Positions 451-50,862 of a stretch of DNA of 64,000 nucleotides are shown one piece after another; the first letter of the stretch is position 1; each line of letters opens with the position of its first letter. The stretch lies in the IMG/VR virus record IMGVR_UViG_3300022751_000001, positions 14,950 through 78,949 of that record, one strand, 5' to 3'. Source of the stretch: a virus (taxonomy: Duplodnaviria > Heunggongvirae > Uroviricota > Caudoviricetes). The notes beneath the pieces are model-generated. The model searched no databases and was not told the origin of the DNA. It saw only the letters and a list, made by a program, of their open reading frames with translations. The position numbers were made by a program, and so were the translations under genes.

Positions 451-721
451 TATATCACCTAAGAACATAGGCTACCTTACCGTTACCTATGACGAGCTGA
501 TGTCCTACAGCAGGATACCAGAATTGGTTTGCGACAACTGCAACAACCTGTTGAAACACGATGAACCTGCCACTGTGATACCAGTATTGAACAGTGCTTA
601 CTGCCCTACTTGCACACCCGATTATATGGAGAGCGTAAAAGACTACCCAGAAGACAGGGCGATACGAGCAAGGCGCGAGCAGTTCTGGTGCGACTTCTAC
701 GGTATAGAGGCTACAGTATGA
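437..721 (+). CDS. hypothetical Cys-rich small protein (possible zinc ribbon)
   Basis: 94 aa with CDNCNN...CPTC cysteine pairs; overlaps the previous ORF by 14 nt. Confidence 0.45.
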   Translation: MATFNISPKNIGYLTVTYDELMSYSRIPELVCDNCNNLLKHDEPATVIPVLNSAYCPTCTPDYMESVKDYPEDRAIRARREQFWCDFYGIEATV

Positions 722-3102: not shown

Positions 3103-3297
3103 ATGTTCGATTATATTATCGAGCTACCAGCAAGGCACGTTGTGCTGAAGAACAGATTTTCTATGGCTCAACAACCAGCGAAACCCGATATAGGACGGTT
3201 TAAGTTCTTTAAGCTAGAGCGGTATCTTTTCAGGCGAAGTCGCACGGGGTGTTACCTCCTTGTAAACGATAACCCAGAAGTGGCGGCAATAGGCTGA
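3103..3297 (+). CDS. hypothetical protein (doubtful)
   Basis: 64-aa ORF inside the long leader downstream of the 2903 promoter; weak RBS. Confidence 0.2.
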   Translation: MFDYIIELPARHVVLKNRFSMAQQPAKPDIGRFKFFKLERYLFRRSRTGCYLLVNDNPEVAAIG

Positions 3298-14926: not shown

Positions 14927-15661
14927 ATGTCACGAACAACAAACCAAGTGCAGTCTACAGTAGACTATGCGCAATTCAAGGTACTCGGTGGTAACCGAAA
15001 CGTAGACCAACGACACGTTAAGCGTTTAATCGCGCAAATCGAACAACCAGACGCAAAAGGTAAACCAACTAACATTACAGAAATCTCACCTATTACTGTA
15101 AACGAAAAGATGGAAGTTATTGATGGTCAACACCGTCTACAAGCTGCCGAAACAGCAGGCATCCCAGTTGCTTACATTATGCGCCCAGGTCTAACTGTTT
15201 CTGACGCTCTACAGATGAACATTACATCTAAGACTTGGAACCTCATGGACTACCTACACCTTTATGTTTCTCAAGGTTCTCAGACTTACAAGAACTTTGC
15301 AGACATTCTAGAAAATCACACATGGTTAACACCTACAATTCTTCTAGCGGTTATCGTTGGTGGAGAATCATCAGGTAAAAACCGACGCTTCAAGCTCGGC
15401 CAACTTGCTGACTTCGACCATGAAACTATCGAAGACCGTGTACAGCAAATCGAAGACATTGCACGTATCAACCCTATCTTCATTCAAGGTAAGATGATCC
15501 GAGCGTATCTTTCAGCTCTTGGTACACCAGGATTCTCACACGAGCGTTTCTACAACAACTTCAAAGCTACGGGTGGTATCTTCCGAGCACAATTGTTCTG
15601 GTTTGACAACGTGTCAATCATTATGAACATTCACGACAAAGCTATTGCAGAAGTAAAATAG
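14927..15661 (+). CDS. ParB-like nuclease domain protein
   Basis: RBS gcaaggag; ...VIDGQHRLQAAETAGIPVAYI matches the ParB/Srx N-terminal DGxHR motif. Confidence 0.6.
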   Translation: MSRTTNQVQSTVDYAQFKVLGGNRNVDQRHVKRLIAQIEQPDAKGKPTNITEISPITVNEKMEVIDGQHRLQAAETAGIPVAYIMRPGLTVSDALQMNITSKTWNLMDYLHLYVSQGSQTYKNFADILENHTWLTPTILLAVIVGGESSGKNRRFKLGQLADFDHETIEDRVQQIEDIARINPIFIQGKMIRAYLSALGTPGFSHERFYNNFKATGGIFRAQLFWFDNVSIIMNIHDKAIAEVK

Positions 15662-22279: not shown

Positions 22280-22704
22280 TTCTTTTCTTGTCTTTTCTTT
22301 GTGAGTCGTGCCGTGTTGTAAAGGTTCTAATTGGTGGAAGCGTCGGGTATTGCACCCGAGTCCAGCGGTTTAACGATTAAGCGTCTACAAGTTTGTTCTG
22401 TTTAAGGCAGACATCTAGGTGGTGTGCCCACTTTTTATTTTGCGTGGTAGTGAGAAACCACGACAACGACATTTATAGGGTGTATGACGTTTTATACGCT
22501 AATGAAGAACTTGTATAAAACGCACTGCTAGTAAGCAGCTGTCGCAAGAACTGGGCTGGCAACGAATTGCGCAACTGCGTTCTTAACTTTTGAAACGAAT
22601 TTGTTTGCGTTTAAAATGTGATTGTAACTAATCATGTACTTGCAACTCAATTGTTAGGTACTACTGTCGAAATCTATATCGCCCCCGTTACGTCTATTAT
22701 ACAC

Positions 22705-40146: not shown

Positions 40147-40221
40147 TGGCACTCGCGCTAGGACTCGAACCTAGATTGCTGGAGCCAAAATCCAGTGTCC
40201 TACCAGTTAGACGACATGAGT
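40147..40221 (-). tRNA. tRNA-Gln(UUG)
   Basis: cloverleaf on the reverse complement; anticodon stem CTGGA/TCCAG, loop TTTTGGC; GTTCGAGTC T-loop; CCA encoded. Confidence 0.7.
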
Positions 40222-40226
40222 ATACT

Positions 40227-40302
40227 TGGGGTAAAAGATGAGAATTGAACTCACATTATCGGCACCACAAGCCGACGTTCTAACCATTGAACTACTTTCA
40301 CC
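40227..40302 (-). tRNA. tRNA-His(GUG)
   Basis: extra 5' G(-1), anticodon loop TTGTGGT, discriminator C, CCA encoded. Confidence 0.7.
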
Positions 40303-40307
40303 ACGCT

Positions 40308-40371
40308 TGGCTCCGCACACGGGTTGCAACGCCTTGGTGCAAACGTTATACACTTCAGACACGTGTACGGA
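40308..40371 (-). pseudogene. 64-nt CCA-terminated tRNA-like element (degenerate tRNA?)
   Basis: 7-bp acceptor-like helix TCCGTAC/GTGCGGA, discriminator G, CCA; too short for a cloverleaf; contains GTTGCAAC...CCCGTG as in the elements at 40907 and 43165. Confidence 0.3.
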
Positions 40372-40374
40372 GTT

Positions 40375-40458
40375 TGGCGGAAGATTGGATAATCGAAAAC
40401 CATGCTTTCACACTCATCGCTTAGCGGGCGAGACCTGATCCTATCAGGTTAATCTTCC
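40375..40458 (-). tRNA. tRNA-Ser(GCU)-like, atypical D-arm (possible pseudogene)
   Basis: perfect acceptor GGAAGAT/ATCTTCC, discriminator G, CCA, T-loop TTCGATT, anticodon loop CCGCTAA with C33, long variable arm; D region is a 7-bp hairpin with a 3-nt loop. Confidence 0.4.
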
Positions 40459-40461
40459 ATG

Positions 40462-40547
<86 letters not shown>

Positions 40548-40553
40548 TAATTG

Positions 40554-40641
40554 TGGTCGGTCTAGCTAGATTTGAACTAGCACGAGGTTTTAATCTCCGC
40601 AGGGTTTAAGCCTGCTATGTCTACCGTTTCATCATAGACCG
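40554..40641 (-). tRNA. tRNA-Leu(UAA)
   Basis: type-II; anticodon stem GCAGG/CCTGC, loop CTTAAAC; CCA. Confidence 0.75.
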
Positions 40642-40646
40642 TAATT

Positions 40647-40732
40647 TGGTACCGAAGGTGGGACTCGAACCCACAACGCTTTTCAGCACTGGTTCCTAAG
40701 ACCAGCGTGTCTACCAATTCCACCACTTCGGC
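40647..40732 (-). tRNA. tRNA-Leu(UAG)
   Basis: type-II; 5' GCCGAAGTGGTGGAATTGGTAGACAC; anticodon loop CTTAGGA; CCA. Confidence 0.75.
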
Positions 40733-40737
40733 ATATT

Positions 40738-40822
40738 TGGTGTGCTTACTCAGACTTGAACTGAGATGAGATTAACTCGGTAGCTTTTGAAACTACTGCG
40801 TATACCGTTCCGCCATAAGCAC
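40738..40822 (-). tRNA. tRNA-Leu(CAA)
   Basis: type-II; anticodon loop TTCAAAA; T-arm CTCAG-TTCAAGT-CTGAG; CCA. Confidence 0.7.
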
Positions 40823-40827
40823 ATATT

Positions 40828-40901
40828 TGGAGAAACGTATCAGATTCGCACTGATGTAAACGGGTTTGCAATCCGCTGCGTAGCTGCTCCGCCAACGCTT
40901 C
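40828..40901 (-). tRNA. tRNA-Cys(GCA)
   Basis: anticodon arm GCGGATTGCAAACCCGT (cf. E. coli Cys GCGGATTGCAAATCCGT); discriminator U; CCA. Confidence 0.7.
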
Positions 40902-40906
40902 ATATT

Positions 40907-41022
40907 TGGCACCCCCGCAAACCTTTAGGGTGAGCTAACAAATGCTTTTTATAACTAGTATGTTGCACTTGCTTGCCTGCGTATCTACTCAGGTAATTAA
41001 GCTGAGCACTACAAACGGGGGT
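40907..41022 (-). ncRNA. 116-nt CCA-terminated tRNA-like element (function unknown)
   Basis: perfect 7-bp terminal helix ACCCCCG/CGGGGGT, discriminator G, CCA, enclosing ~100 nt of AT-rich sequence without a canonical T-loop; 3' region ...CCTAAAGG...CGGGGGTGCCA resembles the element at 43165. Confidence 0.3.
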
Positions 41023-41027
41023 ATATT

Positions 41028-41098
41028 TGGTGAAGTAGGACGGAATCGAACCATCGCCTTTTGATTTACAGTCAATCGGGTGCCCTGCACGCTACAAC
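41028..41098 (-). pseudogene. tRNA-Tyr(GUA)-like, probably degenerate
   Basis: anticodon loop CTGTAAA and T-arm GATGG-TTCGATT-CCGTC are good, but the acceptor has two T-T mismatches, the D-arm is tiny and the variable arm is short for Tyr. Confidence 0.3.
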
Positions 41099-41103
41099 AT
41101 ATT

Positions 41104-41180
41104 TGGTGGTTTCGGTCTGAATTGAACAGACGACCCCCTGTTCTTCAAACAGGTGCTCTAACCAACTGAGCTACAAAACC
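41104..41180 (-). tRNA. tRNA-Phe(GAA)
   Basis: GCTCAGTTGGTTAGAGC D-arm; anticodon loop TTGAAGA; CCA. Confidence 0.75.
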
Positions 41181-41193
41181 AAAAGTTACTTGT

Positions 41194-41274
41194 TCGGGGA
41201 GCCAGGAGTTGAACCTGGGCATCGGGTCTATATTACTCTGCAGCCCGCAGCACTAACGTTATGCTTACTCCCCG
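41194..41274 (-). pseudogene. atypical tRNA-like gene: no encoded CCA, 15-17-nt anticodon loop
   Basis: perfect acceptor CGGGGAG/CTCCCCG and T-arm CCAGG-TTCAACT-CCTGG, but the anticodon stem CGGG/CCCG encloses CTGCAGAGTAATATAGA; 3' end is ...A-ACA instead of CCA. Confidence 0.3.
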
Positions 41275-41277
41275 TTA

Positions 41278-41352
41278 TGGTCAGTCCAGTAGGGTTCGAA
41301 CCTACGGTCTCATGCTCCCAAAGCACGCGTGATACCACTTCACTATAGACTG
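41278..41352 (-). tRNA. tRNA-Pro(UGG)
   Basis: anticodon loop TTTGGGA; T-arm GTAGG-TTCGAAC-CCTAC; CCA. Confidence 0.7.
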
Positions 41353-41355
41353 ATT

Positions 41356-41430
41356 TGGCTCTAGATATTGGAATCGAACCAATCGCCTTCTCCTTAACAG
41401 GGAGCTGCCCTACCGATGGGCCGATCTAGA
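41356..41430 (-). tRNA. tRNA-Asn(GUU)
   Basis: perfect acceptor TCTAGAT/ATCTAGA; anticodon loop CTGTTAA; CCA. Confidence 0.7.
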
Positions 41431-41437
41431 ATATATT

Positions 41438-41512
41438 TGGCGCGACCAGCGAGAATTGAACTCGCGACTATACCGTGACAGGGTACTGTGATAACCACTT
41501 CACCATGATCGC
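41438..41512 (-). tRNA. tRNA-Asp(GUC)
   Basis: anticodon loop CTGTCAC; T-loop TCAATTC; CCA. Confidence 0.7.
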
Positions 41513-41517
41513 ATATT

Positions 41518-41600
41518 TGGCACACGTACACAGATTCGAACTGCTTAGCTTTCGCACTGGTTTTGGAGACCAGTTCCCATCGCCACTAGGGAGTACATGT
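41518..41600 (-). tRNA. tRNA-Trp(CCA) with 11-nt variable region
   Basis: acceptor ACATGTA/TACGTGT (one G-U); anticodon stem CTGGT/ACCAG, loop CTCCAAA; extra GCGAAAGC mini-hairpin in the variable region; 83 nt. Confidence 0.5.
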
Positions 41601-41985
41601 ATATTGGGTGCTGGGTTTTGTTGATTTGTGCCCAGCGTCCCGACTAGCGATATGCAATTGCATAAAGCTATCAAATCGGTCAGACCTTTCATCGGTAGTC
41701 TGAATGAGCCTTATACTTGAGACTCGCTTATCTTTCTCAAGCAGGGTGCGCTAAACGCTCCAAGGGTCGGCAGACCCGTCGTACAACCATTCATTTCGGG
41801 GGAGGGGAGTGTATGCCCCAGCTTAATCTATCGCTCTTTGCAATAGACCCCCTGATGTAACTCGACCGCTGCGCTACCCATCACGGTTTACAGTACCTAC
41901 CAGCTTTGGGAGCTGGGGTGTTAGGGTCACTTACAGCCCTATCTGCTGACTACCGTGCCAAAGCCTCGTCCGTCGGTTAATTTGT

Positions 41986-42019
41986 TAAAAAAAGACACCT
42001 ACTTGTGGGTAGATGTCTC
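41986..42019 (-). terminator. rho-independent terminator (minus strand) inside the tRNA region
   Basis: minus-strand GAGACATCTACC-cacaa-GTAGGTGTC then TTTTTTT. Confidence 0.45.
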
Positions 42020-42140
42020 TCGTTGTTTGTTTTCAAAATTCTTCTTATGAAGAGAACGACAAGACACCTACACTAAATTGATCCGGGCAATTTGACCAGA
42101 GCTGTGATAGTAGTGAGTGACTATATAATGTCTTCATAAT
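42020..42140 (-). ncRNA. candidate small RNA (~130 nt) bounded by promoter and terminator
   Basis: minus-strand promoter ttgtat-18-tgg-tataat (plus 42144-42173) upstream and the 41986-42019 terminator downstream; longest ORF inside is 21 codons. Confidence 0.3.
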
Positions 42141-42143
42141 TTC

Positions 42144-42173
42144 ATTATACCATAATAATAAATGGCAATACAA
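42144..42173 (-). promoter_or_regulatory. putative promoter with extended -10 (minus strand)
   Basis: reverse complement ttgtattgccatttattattatggtataat. Confidence 0.35.
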
Positions 42174-42188
42174 TCTTTTTTATAAATT

Positions 42189-42263
42189 TGGTCACCCATG
42201 GGAGAGTTGAACTCCCGTTGCATGATTGAAAATCATGTGTCCTAACCGTTAGACGAATGGGCG
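42189..42263 (-). tRNA. tRNA-Glu(UUC)
   Basis: anticodon stem CATGA/TCATG, loop TTTTCAA; T-arm GGGAG-TTCAACT-CTCCC; CCA. Confidence 0.7.
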
Positions 42264-42268
42264 ATATG

Positions 42269-42345
42269 TGGTGAAACCGATAGGGATCGAACCTATGACA
42301 CCCTGATTAAGAGTCAGGTGCTCTAACCAGCTGAGCTACGGTTCC
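42269..42345 (-). tRNA. tRNA-Lys(CUU)
   Basis: GCTCAGCTGGTTAGAGC D-arm; anticodon loop CTCTTAA; CCA. Confidence 0.7.
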
Positions 42346-42442
42346 ATATCTTGAAAAGGTGCTACGAGAAGTTTCGGCTCATACGTCCATGCAATTCCTG
42401 CCTGGTTTGACCTCGTAATCATACTTGCTACCAATATGTATT

Positions 42443-42518
42443 TGGTGGAGTTGCAGAGAATCGAACTCTGGTGAAGACGTTGCAAACGTCCCATAATAAA
42501 CCGTTATATGACAACCCC
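42443..42518 (-). tRNA. tRNA-Ala(UGC)
   Basis: acceptor GGGGTTG/CAACTCC; anticodon loop TTTGCAA; T-arm CAGAG-TTCGATT-CTCTG; CCA. Confidence 0.65.
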
Positions 42519-42526
42519 GAATTGTT

Positions 42527-42602
42527 TGGTAGTTCCCGCTGGACTTGAACCAGCACCAGCTTCGTTAGAACCGAAGTGCCCTATCCATTAGACCAGAGAA
42601 CC
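42527..42602 (-). tRNA. tRNA-Arg(UCU)
   Basis: anticodon stem CTTCG/CGAAG, loop GTTCTAA; T-loop TTCAAGT; CCA. Confidence 0.65.
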
Positions 42603-42830
42603 TTATATTTCTGCTTTGAGGTACTTATCGAGCAGATCATTGATTTGAGTAATGTGAACCATACCAGCTTGTTTCACAGCTATTTCACCAAAGTGTCTGC
42701 GCAGTACTACGAAACCTTGTTCGAGTGCTTGCGTTTCTTCTTCAATGATGTCGCGAGTTAGGTCATGCACTAGACTTTCAGCTTGTCGCTTGACTAAGTT
42801 TGGGTCTGGGTCTTTGCGGTATGCTTCCAT
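42603..42830 (-). CDS. hypothetical protein nested inside the tRNA array
   Basis: 75 aa from the internal ATG (MEAYRKDPDPNLVKRQAESLVHDL...); the longer ORF start would overlap tRNA-Gly; stop abuts the 5' end of tRNA-Arg. Confidence 0.4.
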   Translation of the reverse strand: MEAYRKDPDPNLVKRQAESLVHDLTRDIIEEETQALEQGFVVLRRHFGEIAVKQAGMVHITQINDLLDKYLKAEI

Positions 42831-42846
42831 ACTCTTATTATACGTA

Positions 42847-42921
42847 TGGTGCGGGTACACAGAATCGAACTGTGATCCCCTGATTGGAAGTCAGGTATAT
42901 TAGCCGTTATACTATACCCGC
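42847..42921 (-). tRNA. tRNA-Gly(UCC)
   Basis: perfect acceptor GCGGGTA/TACCCGC; anticodon loop CTTCCAA; T-arm CACAG-TTCGATT-CTGTG; CCA. Confidence 0.7.
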
Positions 42922-42927
42922 AAATGT

Positions 42928-43005
42928 TGGAGCCCCTCACGGAGTCGAACCGTTCCTCGTACCTACCACGGTACGCGTGCTAACCAACGTTACACTAACT
43001 GGGGC
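42928..43005 (-). pseudogene. tRNA-Thr(GGU)-like with irregular anticodon loop and acceptor (possible pseudogene)
   Basis: anticodon region CGTAC-CGTGGTAG-GTACG allows only a 6- or 8-nt loop around GGT; T-loop TTCGACT present; acceptor pairing imperfect; CCA position ambiguous. Confidence 0.3.
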
Positions 43006-43008
43006 GTA

Positions 43009-43082
43009 TGGGGCCGCCACTCGGTACTGCCCCGAGGTCGATAGTTTACAAAACTACTACTCTACTTTTGAGCTATGGCGGC
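43009..43082 (-). tRNA. tRNA-Thr(UGU) with non-canonical T-loop
   Basis: perfect acceptor GCCGCCA/TGGCGGC, discriminator C, CCA; anticodon loop TTTGTAA; T-arm TCGGG-GCAGTAC-CCGAG lacks the T54-psi55-C56 consensus. Confidence 0.5.
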
Positions 43083-43085
43083 ACT

Positions 43086-43161
43086 TGGTAGTCCCAGAAG
43101 GAATTGCACCCTCGACACCTTGTTCCGAAGACAAGTGCTCTATCTGCTGAGCTATAGGACT
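43086..43161 (-). tRNA. tRNA-Arg(UCG)
   Basis: acceptor AGTCCTA/TGGGACT; D-arm GCTCAGCAGATAGAGC; anticodon loop CTTCGGA; CCA. Confidence 0.6.
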
Positions 43162-43164
43162 TTA

Positions 43165-43268
43165 TGGTGCACGGGGGCAGCTTTAGGCTACCTCTATTCT
43201 AATAACGCTTCAGTGCACCTCTACGCTTTCGATTCTCGAGCCACGTTGCAACGATGTGCTCTCCGTAC
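43165..43268 (-). ncRNA. 104-nt CCA-terminated tRNA-like element (function unknown)
   Basis: terminal helix GTACGGA/CCCGTGC, discriminator A, CCA; no T-loop; interior contains CGTTGCAACG and ...GCCTAAAGCTGCCCCCGTGCACCA, echoing the elements at 40308 and 40907. Confidence 0.3.
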
Positions 43269-43273
43269 AAATT

Positions 43274-43358
43274 TGGTTGCGGGGACGGGATTCGAACCCG
43301 TGTATCTTGCGACAAAGGGATATGAGCCCTCCGAGAATGACCGCTTCTCAACCCCGCT
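43274..43358 (-). tRNA. type-II (long variable arm) tRNA with CAU anticodon and A1-A72 mismatch
   Basis: acceptor AGCGGGG/CCCCGCA with A1 opposite A72; 3-bp D-stem GAG/CTC; anticodon stem GAGGG/CCCTT, loop CTCATAT (anticodon CAU); variable arm TGTC-GCAA-GATA hairpin; T-arm ACGGG-TTCGAAT-CCCGT; CCA. Confidence 0.55.
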
Positions 43359-43363
43359 ATATA

Positions 43364-43439
43364 TGGTCGTCTCTGTAGGACTCGAACCTACAACCTTCTG
43401 TGTGTAAAACAGATGCTCTAGCCATTGAGCTAAGAGACG
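43364..43439 (-). tRNA. tRNA-Val(UAC)
   Basis: acceptor CGTCTCT/AGAGACG; D-arm GCTCAATGGCTAGAGC; anticodon loop TTTACAC; CCA. Confidence 0.7.
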
Positions 43440-43451
43440 ATAATTTGTTAA

Positions 43452-43525
43452 TGGTCGGTGTAGGTGGTTCTGCCCCACCGTATGCAGAATATAAGTCTGC
43501 TGTTCTACTATTGAACTATACACCA
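43452..43525 (-). tRNA. tRNA with UAU anticodon (Ile-UAU?) and non-canonical T-loop
   Basis: acceptor TGGTGTA/TACACCG; D-arm GTTCAATAGTAGAAC; anticodon stem GCAGA/TCTGC, loop CTTATAT; T-arm GGTGG-GGCAGAA-CCACC lacks the TTC consensus; CCA. Confidence 0.45.
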
Positions 43526-43532
43526 GAATACT

Positions 43533-43609
43533 TGGTTGGACGAGTAGGATTTGAACCTACGATCTCCTGAATATCAGTCAAGTGCTTTAACCAGCTAAGC
43601 TACCGTCCA
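43533..43609 (-). tRNA. tRNA-Ile(GAU)
   Basis: acceptor TGGACGG/TCGTCCA; anticodon stem CTTGA/TCAGG, loop CTGATAT; T-arm GTAGG-TTCAAAT-CCTAC; CCA. Confidence 0.6.
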
Positions 43610-43616
43610 TTATTTG

Positions 43617-43691
43617 TGGTGGGCTCGGTTGGAATCGAACCAACGTGGTACAGATTAAAAGTCTGCTGCTCAACCACTGAGCCACGAACCC
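43617..43691 (-). tRNA. tRNA-Lys(UUU)
   Basis: acceptor GGGTTCG/CGAGCCC; D-arm GCTCAGTGGTTGAGC; anticodon loop CTTTTAA; T-arm GTTGG-TTCGATT-CCAAC; CCA. Confidence 0.7.
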
Positions 43692-49876: not shown

Positions 49877-49929
49877 CCGATTGATGTTCATACTTAGGTA
49901 TGAAAGAGATAAAACATAAAAGGATCAAC

Positions 49930-50862
49930 ATGAAAAAACCTATTCTACGTATGATGGTTGGTCTCCCTGGCTCAGGTAAAAGCACCGCAGCTAGTGAGCT
50001 GACAGACAACAGTACCCCAGATGAAACTTGGGTGCAGGTTGAGAAAGACCTTATTCGCAAAGACAGCAAGCTCTTTGAGGGCGGTGAGTACAACCACAAG
50101 CGCGGTGACGAAGCTATCGTTATTCGAGAGCGCAACCGTCTTATTCGTGACGCACTACGAGCTGGTAACAGCGTAGTCGTTTCAGACACAAACCTCGACC
50201 CTAAGCACCGTGGGCAACTGCGAATGTTGGCTACCGAAACCGACGTAGATTTCGAAGTCGATGACAGCTTCTTAGATGTACCAGTTGACGAATGTATTAA
50301 GCGCGACGAAGACCGTGAAAAGAGTATCGGTAAAGACGTTATCTTAGATATGTATTACAAATACGTTCACCCAGGCTTTCACCAACGTCGTTCTGACTGG
50401 AAAGACAAGCTACCACGTGCGTTCTTGTGCGACATTGACGGTACACTGGCTCACAACCTCACTGGGCGTAGCTGGTACGACCTCGAGCAAGTTAAGAATG
50501 ACACACCGAACTACGCACTAACACACATCTTTGACGCGATTGACCTGTTTCGTGATGACTTTTCTCGCAAGCACACGAAGTACACACACATCATTCTCTT
50601 GAGCGGTCGCAAAGAGGGGGCTCGAGCGGCTACAGAAGCGTGGTTAGACCAATGGTCAATACCGTATGATGAACTCATTATGCGCGCAGACAACGATGAC
50701 CGACAAGACTCTATCACAAAGAAAGAGCTGTACGAGCAACACATTAAAGACAAGTACAATGTTCTAGCTGTATTTGACGACCGACCACAGGTAGTTGATA
50801 TGTGGCGACGTGAGCTTGGCTTGATGGTATTTCAGGCTGCAGATCACGACTTGAAGTTTTAA
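49930..50862 (+). CDS. pnk: polynucleotide 5'-kinase/3'-phosphatase (T4 Pnk-like)
   Basis: P-loop MVGLPGSGKST; VSDTNLDPKHR (T4 ISDTNLNPERR); HAD phosphatase motifs FLCDIDGTLAH, ILLSGRKEG, VFDDRPQVVDMWRRELG (T4 IDDRTQVVEMWRRIG); start may be 49900. Confidence 0.8.
   Translation: MKKPILRMMVGLPGSGKSTAASELTDNSTPDETWVQVEKDLIRKDSKLFEGGEYNHKRGDEAIVIRERNRLIRDALRAGNSVVVSDTNLDPKHRGQLRMLATETDVDFEVDDSFLDVPVDECIKRDEDREKSIGKDVILDMYYKYVHPGFHQRRSDWKDKLPRAFLCDIDGTLAHNLTGRSWYDLEQVKNDTPNYALTHIFDAIDLFRDDFSRKHTKYTHIILLSGRKEGARAATEAWLDQWSIPYDELIMRADNDDRQDSITKKELYEQHIKDKYNVLAVFDDRPQVVDMWRRELGLMVFQAADHDLKF

Follow-up and report, generated by a model that had tools for sequence, protein, structure and literature searches.

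The window analysed here is a stretch of 64,000 nucleotides (nt) of tailed-phage DNA, corresponding to positions 14,950 to 78,949 of the IMG/VR record IMGVR_UViG_3300022751_000001. It carries two transfer RNA (tRNA) genes, tRNA-Thr(UGU) (43009..43082, minus strand) and tRNA-Ile(UAU) (43452..43525, minus strand), with an alternative elbow. Both are genuine members of the tRNA family which break four near-universal nucleotide rules in a coordinated fashion: G18, U54 (T), U55 (pseudouridine, Ψ) and A58 are replaced in both genes by A18, G54, G55 and G58. The tertiary pairs 18:55 and 54:58 covary almost perfectly across phage tRNAs. It is very likely that both genes encode working elongator tRNAs with a co-adapted elbow of mutually matched D-loop and T-loop contacts.

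Identity and fold of the two tRNA genes

Both genes were recognised by the Rfam tRNA model RF00005, which has a gathering score of 29 bits; tRNA-Thr scored 48.3 bits (match 43012-43082) and tRNA-Ile(UAU) scored 50.3 bits (match 43455-43525). These scores confirm the two tRNA genes that an earlier note, made from the letters of this DNA alone, had placed here. Divided into its structural elements from the 5' acceptor strand to the 3' end, tRNA-Thr reads GCCGCCA UA GCUC AAAAGUA GAGU A GUAGU UUUGUAA ACUAU CGAC CUCGG GGCAGUA CCGAG UGGCGGC C CCA, and tRNA-Ile(UAU) reads UGGUGUA UA GUUC AAUAGUA GAAC A GCAGA CUUAUAU UCUGC AUAC GGUGG GGCAGAA CCACC UACACCG A CCA. All 21 stem pairs are formed in each gene (acceptor, D, anticodon and T stems of 7, 4, 5 and 5 base pairs (bp), respectively), and the cloverleaf is the minimum-free-energy as well as the centroid fold, with z of -3.1 for Thr and -3.7 for Ile. 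Mispairing of the tRNA-Ile T-loop GGCAGAA with the anticodon stem GCAGA/UCUGC was considered and rejected, as the cloverleaf stays the minimum-free-energy and centroid fold. The 7-nt anticodon loops, UUUGUAA (Thr) and CUUAUAU (Ile), are ordinary and contain U33 and a purine at position 37. Both genes encode the 3' CCA, and they are separated by 369 nt. The earlier note was therefore accurate in giving a distance of about 370 bp and in describing intact acceptor stems and an encoded CCA, with the proviso that the acceptor stem of tRNA-Ile(UAU) opens with a U1-G72 wobble.

The loops were numbered in the register of the Rfam alignment and by direct reading. The T-loop of tRNA-Thr is G54 G55 C56 A57 G58 U59 A60 (43025..43031, minus strand) and that of tRNA-Ile(UAU) is G54 G55 C56 A57 G58 A59 A60 (43468..43474, minus strand), so the likeness remarked on previously comes down to one motif, GGCAGNA (G54 G55 C56 A57 G58 N59 A60). 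The Thr T-arm had been drawn as TCGGG-GCAGTAC-CCGAG, which is one base off register and leaves the stem unpaired; the alignment gives CUCGG-GGCAGUA-CCGAG. As for the reported loss of T54-Ψ55-C56, U54 and U55 are indeed replaced, as is A58, but C56 is retained. The description of the genes as otherwise perfect tRNAs has to be given up. The D-loops are A14 A15 A16 A18 G19 U20 A21 in tRNA-Thr (AAAAGUA, without G18; 43063..43069, minus strand) and A14 A15 U16 A18 G19 U20 A21 in tRNA-Ile(UAU) (AAUAGUA; 43506..43512, minus strand). Both lack the GG and share the motif AANAGUA, which differs from the Rfam consensus AAUGGUA by G18 -> A18. Moreover, the variable loops of both genes have 4 nt, with the final C opposite A15. 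U8, A14, A21, G19:C56 and G53:C61 are all kept in both genes.

The discriminator of tRNA-Thr is C73, and that of E. coli tRNA-Thr is A73. The other Thr members of the class described below have U, G or C at this position, so the correctness that had been claimed for the discriminator cannot be asserted in the case of tRNA-Thr. The body of tRNA-Ile(UAU) is of the Ile type, with A73, U12:A23, A35, U36 and A37 present; C29:G41 and C4:G69, which belong to the E. coli Ile identity set, are absent.

Conservation and decoding role

Four IMG/VR contigs (L023, L027, L048 and L061) carry the same tRNA array, with an overall identity of about 90-92%. The mean identity over these relatives is 94.5% for the tRNA genes and 86.8% for the spacers. 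The variant tRNA-Thr is 97-100% identical in the four relatives, and the variant tRNA-Ile is 94.6-98.6% identical. Substitutions within stems keep the pairing (C6 -> U opposite G; C43 -> U opposite G), and the remaining ones fall in the variable loop, at position 26 and at D-loop position 16. The T-loops and A18 G19 are unchanged in all four contigs; the sole D-loop change is A16 -> U16 in tRNA-Thr, and all changes in tRNA-Ile(UAU) lie outside the D- and T-loops. This is the pattern of functional genes, not of decaying ones.

The two genes are part of a tRNA array (40147..43691, minus strand) which comprises 22 tRNAs called by ARAGORN, the two variants and three low-scoring tRNAs. The 22 ARAGORN genes cover 18 amino acids and the whole array covers 20, under a decoding scheme of mostly one U34 tRNA per four-codon box. 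Threonine is supplied only by the variant at 43009-43082, tyrosine only by a low-scoring gene at 41028-41101, and AUA can be read in the array only by the variant tRNA-Ile(UAU). As for codon usage, ACA is the commonest Thr codon (33%), and AUA makes up 13% of the Ile codons. An enrichment of ACA and AUA in late genes, which the earlier note had raised, was not seen to any meaningful degree when structural genes were compared with the other set: ACA accounted for 36% vs 34% of Thr codons and AUA for 9% vs 6% of Ile codons. The UAU anticodon, singled out as a rarity, turned out to be ordinary in phage tRNA sets and is found in 9 distinct viral members of the class.

Recurrence in viruses and in bacteria

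A search pattern derived from the two genes consisted of TCAANAGTAGA, a gap of 22-32 and then GGGGCAGNACC, and fixed parts of the D and T stems. In viral DNA it matched 81 tRNAs in 72 loci, representing 58 distinct sequences and 18 anticodons. About 55 of the 58 have complete acceptor, anticodon and T stems, unspecified by the pattern, and 33 of the 58 encode CCA. A scan that disregards loop sequence (described below) gave 110 distinct members with a GGCRG T-loop. The class, as we refer to these tRNAs, includes at least 22 anticodons and spans tRNAs of at least 15 amino acids in phages. One member with a CUA anticodon, of the amber-suppressor type, was noted in another viral contig (L036, IMGVR_UViG_3300049489_000017, ~666-715, minus strand).

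Two cultured phages carry the same elbow. BLAST located it in tRNA-Met of Bacillus phage SPO1 (FJ230960, 28867-28940; D-loop AAAAGUA, T-loop GGCGGUA) and in tRNA-Gly of Streptomyces phage BillNye (NC_042105, 87207-87278; D-loop AACAGUA, T-loop GGCGGCA). Both genes are already annotated as tRNAs in GenBank; in some SPO1-like genomes the locus is unannotated or labelled 'tRNA-OTHER'. The class is absent from phage T5.

The same pattern matched only 38 loci in 596 Gb of bacterial and archaeal genomes, all of them metagenome-assembled or single-amplified genomes. Most of these cellular matches are tRNA-His(GUG), in Levybacteria and other members of the candidate phyla radiation (CPR), or tRNA-Trp(CCA), in Parcubacteria-type lineages. 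The CPR/Patescibacteria loci (L073-L110, e.g. L076 4191-4240, as well as L097, L107 and L108) show the elbow GGCAGCA/AACAGUA. These tRNAs sit in tRNA clusters with otherwise canonical members, on contigs of up to 751 kb, and the neighbours of one CPR tRNA-His gene encode a rhomboid protease, TerC, arginase and GreA. The elbow therefore probably also serves cellular translation, given its place in CPR tRNA clusters among ordinary cellular genes.

Coupling of the D- and T-loop positions

To count loop combinations we used a cloverleaf scanner that is blind to loop sequence and demands U8, A14, U33 and at least 19 of 21 stem pairs. Checked on the window, it recovered 22 tRNAs, both variants among them. 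It was run on the fetched class loci and on 120 control loci from viruses, retrieved with the pattern's canonical counterpart, and yielded 1131 distinct tRNAs, 954 of which were unselected by either pattern. Among the unselected tRNAs with 7-nt D-loops, the 18:55 combination was G:U in 209, A:G in 47 and G:C in 16, and never G:G or A:U; 19:56 was G:C in 261, A:U in 7, G:U in 4 and C:G in 1. For 54:58, the unselected tRNAs had U:A in 876 cases, G:G in 37, A:U in 20 and A:A in 11, with no G:A or U:G. A60 was present in 58 of the 69 unselected tRNAs having A54 or G54. The association of G55 with a D-loop lacking GG gave a Fisher p of 7e-94, with the sequences counted as independent. The combination of G54/G58 with U55/G18 occurred in 2-3 cases as against 116, and because it is so rare, the four replacements behave as one package.

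Further features accompany the package. A15/C48 was found in 59 of the 78 full GGCRG class members vs 6% of canonical tRNAs, and the class members share a 7-nt D-loop (67/78), a 4-nt variable loop (61/78) and A57 (69/78). An association also links positions 16 and 59 in class members (C-C 17, U-A 19, U-U 13, A-U 6). In an alignment of 50 members the four helices are 96-100% paired, a percentage inflated by the scanner's rule of at least 19 of 21 pairs; compensatory cells over all four helices numbered 446 vs 142 in shuffles, the covariation score was 0.92 vs 0.19 in shuffles, and G19:C56 was invariant in 50/50. These data support the altered D-loop/T-loop interaction put forward in the earlier note, which had overlooked the D-loop half of it (G18 -> A18); the T-loop change makes sense because the D-loop has changed as well. 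The view that the variant is maintained and not a product of random decay also stands, since the genes are conserved like their canonical neighbours, occupy unique decoding slots and follow the covariation at 18:55 and 54:58.

Half-way forms were also observed. Two tRNAs of the array, tRNA-Arg(UCG) (43086..43161, minus strand; T-loop UGCAAUU, D-loop AGCAGAUA) and tRNA-Cys(GCA) (40828..40901, minus strand; T-loop UGCGAAU, D-loop AGCAGCU), have G55 together with AG for GG in the D-loop. They thus show the A18/G55 coupling and keep U54 and A58. Such forms, with a UGCRA T-loop and A18, make up ~3% of the unselected phage tRNAs. The transfer-messenger RNA (tmRNA) of the window (22332-22686, minus strand; Rfam RF00023, 72.1 bits; not reported by ARAGORN) has the same coupling, with T-loop UGCAAUA (G55) and, in its D-loop analogue, AG vs the consensus GG.

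In the control loci, G55 types accounted for 14/426 (3.3%) and G54/G58 types for 2/426 (0.5%) of the unselected tRNAs. In loci with one class tRNA, the corresponding counts among the other tRNAs were 75/429 and 28/429 (odds ratios 6 and 15, respectively). Certain phages are thus enriched in variant elbows. Other rare paired variants were seen in the same data, namely A19:U56, C19:G56, A54:U58 and C55 with G18. In phage T5 (L234), the only variant is tRNA-Ile1 (GAU; 3211-3287), which has T-loop UUUAAAU and GA for GG in the D-loop; it carries A19:U56 for G19:C56, so tertiary-pair swaps occur in a model phage too.

Detection by tRNA finders

ARAGORN called neither variant gene, either at its default setting or relaxed to -ps70. 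On the fetched loci it found 479 of 480 UUCRA tRNAs vs 1 of 137 GGCRG tRNAs. As the program misses the class, it cannot judge the two genes. The G18/G19 and T-Ψ-C signature passes for nearly invariant, and tRNA finders incorporate it; pipelines relying on ARAGORN systematically under-report the GGCRG class, and an ARAGORN-based annotation of this phage would show a tRNA set without a Thr tRNA.

Proposed elbow and alternative explanations

In the standard elbow, a reverse-Hoogsteen U54-A58 pair closes the T-loop, and G18 intercalates between 57 and 58 and bonds Ψ55 (PMC4810234). G19 pairs with C56, and the outer face of this pair is stacked on by the ribosome, RNase P and T-boxes (PMC4810234). 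T-loops outside tRNA have the consensus UGNRA; an adenosine almost always intercalates between positions 4 and 5 and contacts the G at position 2 by a hydrogen bond to its sugar edge. Ribosomal RNA (rRNA) contains a known GGAAG T-loop.

We propose that in the two tRNAs A18 goes with G55 and G54 with G58, in place of G18-Ψ55 and T54-A58. A60 and A15/C48 are present alongside these changes, in the setting of a short D-loop (7 nt) and a short variable loop (4 nt). The tRNA-specific lock, UUCRA with an intercalating G, would be swapped for the generic T-loop lock, with G at position 2 and an intercalating adenosine. The A18/G55 coupling matches the generic T-loop rule, and GGCAG belongs to the GGNAG type of loop. 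At the sequence level, the rule of G at position 2 with an adenosine is followed (18:55 is A:G in 47 tRNAs and never G:G or A:U), and the 54:58 coupling (116 G:G, no G:A or U:G) is consistent with the three-dimensional T-loop fold, in which positions 1 and 5 form a non-canonical pair, a stacking gap separates positions 4 and 5, and the next two bases bulge out. The outer G19:C56, G53:C61, U8, A14 and A21 are unchanged, so RNase P and the ribosome should encounter the same face. In translation, tRNA-Thr(UGU) would read ACN codons and tRNA-Ile(UAU) would read AUA.

We take the genes, their folds, their conservation, their sole decoding role, the covariation and the recurrence as established. From the sequences we infer the three-dimensional contacts, aminoacylation and use in translation of both tRNAs. 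Aminoacylation and use by the ribosome are supported indirectly, by the encoded CCA, by conservation and by the position of the two genes as the sole Thr tRNA and the sole AUA decoder of a full set. Several points weigh against the co-adapted elbow. The support for function of the class members comes from sequence, and the G54-G58 pair and the A18-G55 contact are predicted from sequence and T-loop analogy; to our knowledge, neither contact has been seen in any tRNA structure. C73 of tRNA-Thr and U1-G72 of tRNA-Ile fall outside the textbook identity features. The covariation counts take each sequence as independent though many are related, and the pattern behind the first sample together with the stem rule of the scanner makes the pairing percentage partly a matter of construction.

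Decaying pseudogenes, or tRNA-like RNAs outside translation (decoys, primers or processing signals), would account for the failure of ARAGORN to call either gene; several conserved RNAs of the array are in fact tRNA-like without being normal tRNAs, and T5 has annotated tRNA-like stable RNAs. Such an origin is nevertheless extremely improbable. The stems, U33, purine 37, CCA and anticodons are intact, the two genes are conserved at the level of their canonical neighbours, and without them the otherwise complete set would lack any decoder for Thr and for AUA. Each of the four helices shows compensatory changes among the 50 aligned members, and in a cellular tRNA cluster the tRNA-His is of this design. 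The pseudogene reading in particular was rejected because the stems are intact, the decoding role is unique and identity in the relatives stands at 94.6-100%, as against 94.5% over all tRNAs and 86.8% over spacers. Neutral compensatory drift has more in its favour, and we hold it possible, if somewhat doubtful. It would make the elbow a second stable solution, reached by paired substitutions in fast-evolving and weakly constrained phage tRNAs and spread by duplication and anticodon switching, with no advantage of its own. It explains the many rare paired variants (A19:U56, C19:G56, A54:U58, C55/G18 and T5 tRNA-Ile1) equally well, and the half-way UGCRA/A18 forms, at ~3% of unselected phage tRNAs, agree with it. 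Outside the loops, the sequence closest to a class tRNA is another class tRNA in 38/51 cases, 16 of them with a different anticodon; this is suggestive of common descent, but the fetching pattern biases it and it is not relied on. Against drift, at least six coordinated features occur as a package in very different phages and in CPR cells, and the near-absence of G54/G58 with U55/G18 (2-3 vs 116) points to strong coupling and not to free drift.

The co-adapted elbow may also have a selective reason. Positions 18, 54, 55 and 58 are conserved modified elbow positions of Bacteria (PMC7912444), and with these four bases replaced the class cannot receive Gm18, m5U54, Ψ55 and m1A58. We tentatively suggest, while regarding it as rather unlikely, that this is a second, hitherto undescribed tRNA-elbow architecture, repeatedly adopted in phages and in CPR tRNA-His and tRNA-Trp, and selected for removing every elbow base that needs modification; it would be independent of TrmA, TruB, TrmI and TrmH and invisible to readers of T-Ψ-C. 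A related idea, adaptive escape, which we consider unlikely, is that the elbow evades a host factor reading the T- or D-loop, such as a T-loop nuclease used in defence or competition, or frees the tRNA from the same four enzymes, so that it could fold and function without them whatever the host. It is compatible with the co-adapted elbow and would add a selective reason to the structural explanation. In its favour, all four modified elbow bases are replaced and the unmodified G19 and C56 are kept, the variants cluster by phage (6x for G55 and 15x for G54/G58 vs control loci), and the tmRNA of the phage itself has G55 with an AG D-loop. A T4-type polynucleotide kinase-phosphatase, a type of tRNA-repair enzyme, is encoded 6 kb from the array, and phage tRNAs resisting host tRNases have a precedent, documented for anticodon loops (PMC10264068, PMC11555353). 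On the other side, the full variant is present in only 2 of ~27 array tRNAs (G55 in 4), which means that a nuclease cutting T-loops in general would still put the set out of action, and the spread over at least 22 anticodons across phages leaves no single target isoacceptor. The same elbow is a housekeeping feature of CPR tRNA-His and tRNA-Trp, and the class retains the G19:C56 face on which the ribosome and RNase P rely; these two points and the small share of full variants in the array weigh against a purely phage-specific anti-defence role. No defence system reading T-loop bases came up in our literature searches, and Cas12a3 touches just the T-arm backbone. The earlier note had raised evasion of a tRNA-targeting nuclease and also an altered ribosome/EF-Tu interaction; the data support neither.

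If the co-adapted elbow is correct, nature has at least one further way of building a working tRNA elbow, which follows the T-loop rule of riboswitches and rRNA. The class provides natural tRNA scaffolds without the targets of four conserved modification enzymes, which would be useful for probing the roles of these modifications and for building orthogonal tRNAs. Cultured systems for direct tests are at hand in SPO1 in B. subtilis and BillNye in Streptomyces.

The tRNA array and its genomic setting

The window has a G+C content of ~46% and encodes a large terminase, a tape-measure protein, tail fibres and an endolysin. In blastn against cultured phages the region gave generic tRNA similarity of 68-76% only and no close relative, and tblastn with the large terminase gave distant matches only (25-40% identity) to phages of Bacteroidota and others.

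Several other members of the array are unusual. The sole tRNA with a CAU anticodon (43274-43358, minus strand) resembles an initiator in its A1xA72 mismatch and in the three G:C pairs with which its anticodon stem ends at the base; its variable region, of 13 nt, is unusual. A separate elongator tRNA-Met was not seen in the array. The tRNA-Trp(CCA) (41518-41600, minus strand) is 83 nt long and of non-standard architecture, and a permissive Rfam search gave only a sub-threshold tRNA-Sec match (30 bits vs 47). Adjoining the variant tRNA-Thr is a tRNA-like gene (42928-43005, minus strand) that is 96-97% conserved; its T-arm is canonical and it ends in CCA. The acceptor stem comprises only 5 bp, and the anticodon arm can be drawn with a 5-bp stem and an 8-nt loop (CGUGGUAG) or with 6 bp and 6 nt; ARAGORN reported it as 'tRNA-???' only at -ps80, and there was no Rfam call. 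Another tRNA-like gene (41195-41273, minus strand; Rfam tRNA, 30.9 bits) combines a good acceptor stem and T-arm with an oversized anticodon arm, and is 94-95% conserved in the relatives. It ends in AAC and is the exception among the parsed tRNA genes of the array, all others of which encode CCA.

Three spacers of the array (40902-41027, 43162-43273 and 40302-40374, all minus strand) are 95-100% conserved in most relatives; the identity of the last drops to 77% in L061. They fold as branched or long-stem RNAs in which a closing helix is directly followed by CCA: in the order given, a 9-bp stem with GCCA (z -3.1), a 7-bp stem with CCA and an 11-bp stem with CCA. None of these spacers matched an Rfam family. 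At equivalent places, the annotation of phage T5 lists 'tRNA-like stable RNAs of unknown function'. An 85-codon open reading frame (ORF) within the array (42603-42860, minus strand), 93-95% conserved, recalls the small ORFs across the T5 tRNA region. The T4-type polynucleotide kinase-phosphatase ORF (49900-50862, plus strand), ~6 kb from the array, contains a kinase P-loop and a PNKP HAD phosphatase (E 6e-41) and belongs to a type of RNA/tRNA-repair enzyme; no RNA ligase partner was found among 20 neighbouring ORFs.

Comparison with known systems

In the literature we found no description of an A18/G55 or GGCAG tRNA elbow, nor of 18:55 A:G covariation; two older papers, on the 54-58 pair and on T-loops, were not covered. 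The class shares with canonical bacterial and phage elongator tRNAs the stems of 7, 4, 5 and 5 bp, U8, A14, A21, U33, purine 37, G53:C61, G19:C56 and the CCA end, and differs from them in A18, G54, G55 and G58, in A60 for Y60 and in A15/C48 for R15:Y48. With the generic T-loops of riboswitches, RNase P and rRNA, it would have in common the G at position 2 and an adenosine slotting between positions 4 and 5; the rRNA GGAAG loop also has G at the first and fifth positions. Those loops dock other receptors, whereas the class would dock the tRNA D-loop, with C56 (position 3) in a Watson-Crick pair with G19.

Phage tRNAs that resist nucleases are likewise phage-encoded and differ from host tRNAs at conserved positions. 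T5 tRNA-Lys, for its part, resists PARIS. In the documented cases, such as the mycobacteriophage anticodon-loop variants and T5 tRNA-Tyr, which is set against retron effectors (PMC11555353), the change affects the anticodon loop or stem, where the nuclease cuts. The class, by contrast, has ordinary anticodon loops and is altered in the elbow. We know of no nuclease that matches such a change.

The eukaryotic initiator tRNA (A54, A60) resembles the class in coupling a purine at position 54 to A60. It keeps G18, pseudouridine 55 and A58; the class also changes positions 18, 55 and 58, and its members are elongators. The 16/59 association in the class recalls the C16:C59 and U16:U59 tertiary contacts described for tRNA-Sec (PMC7609411); apart from this, the T-loop of tRNA-Sec is canonical and its architecture as a whole is different. 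Finally, tRNA-Pyl and animal mitochondrial tRNAs are natural tRNAs that function without the G18 G19 and T54 Ψ55 C56 signature. They lose G19:C56 and have shrunken or absent loops, whereas the class keeps G19:C56, D- and T-loops of 7 nt and a normal cloverleaf.

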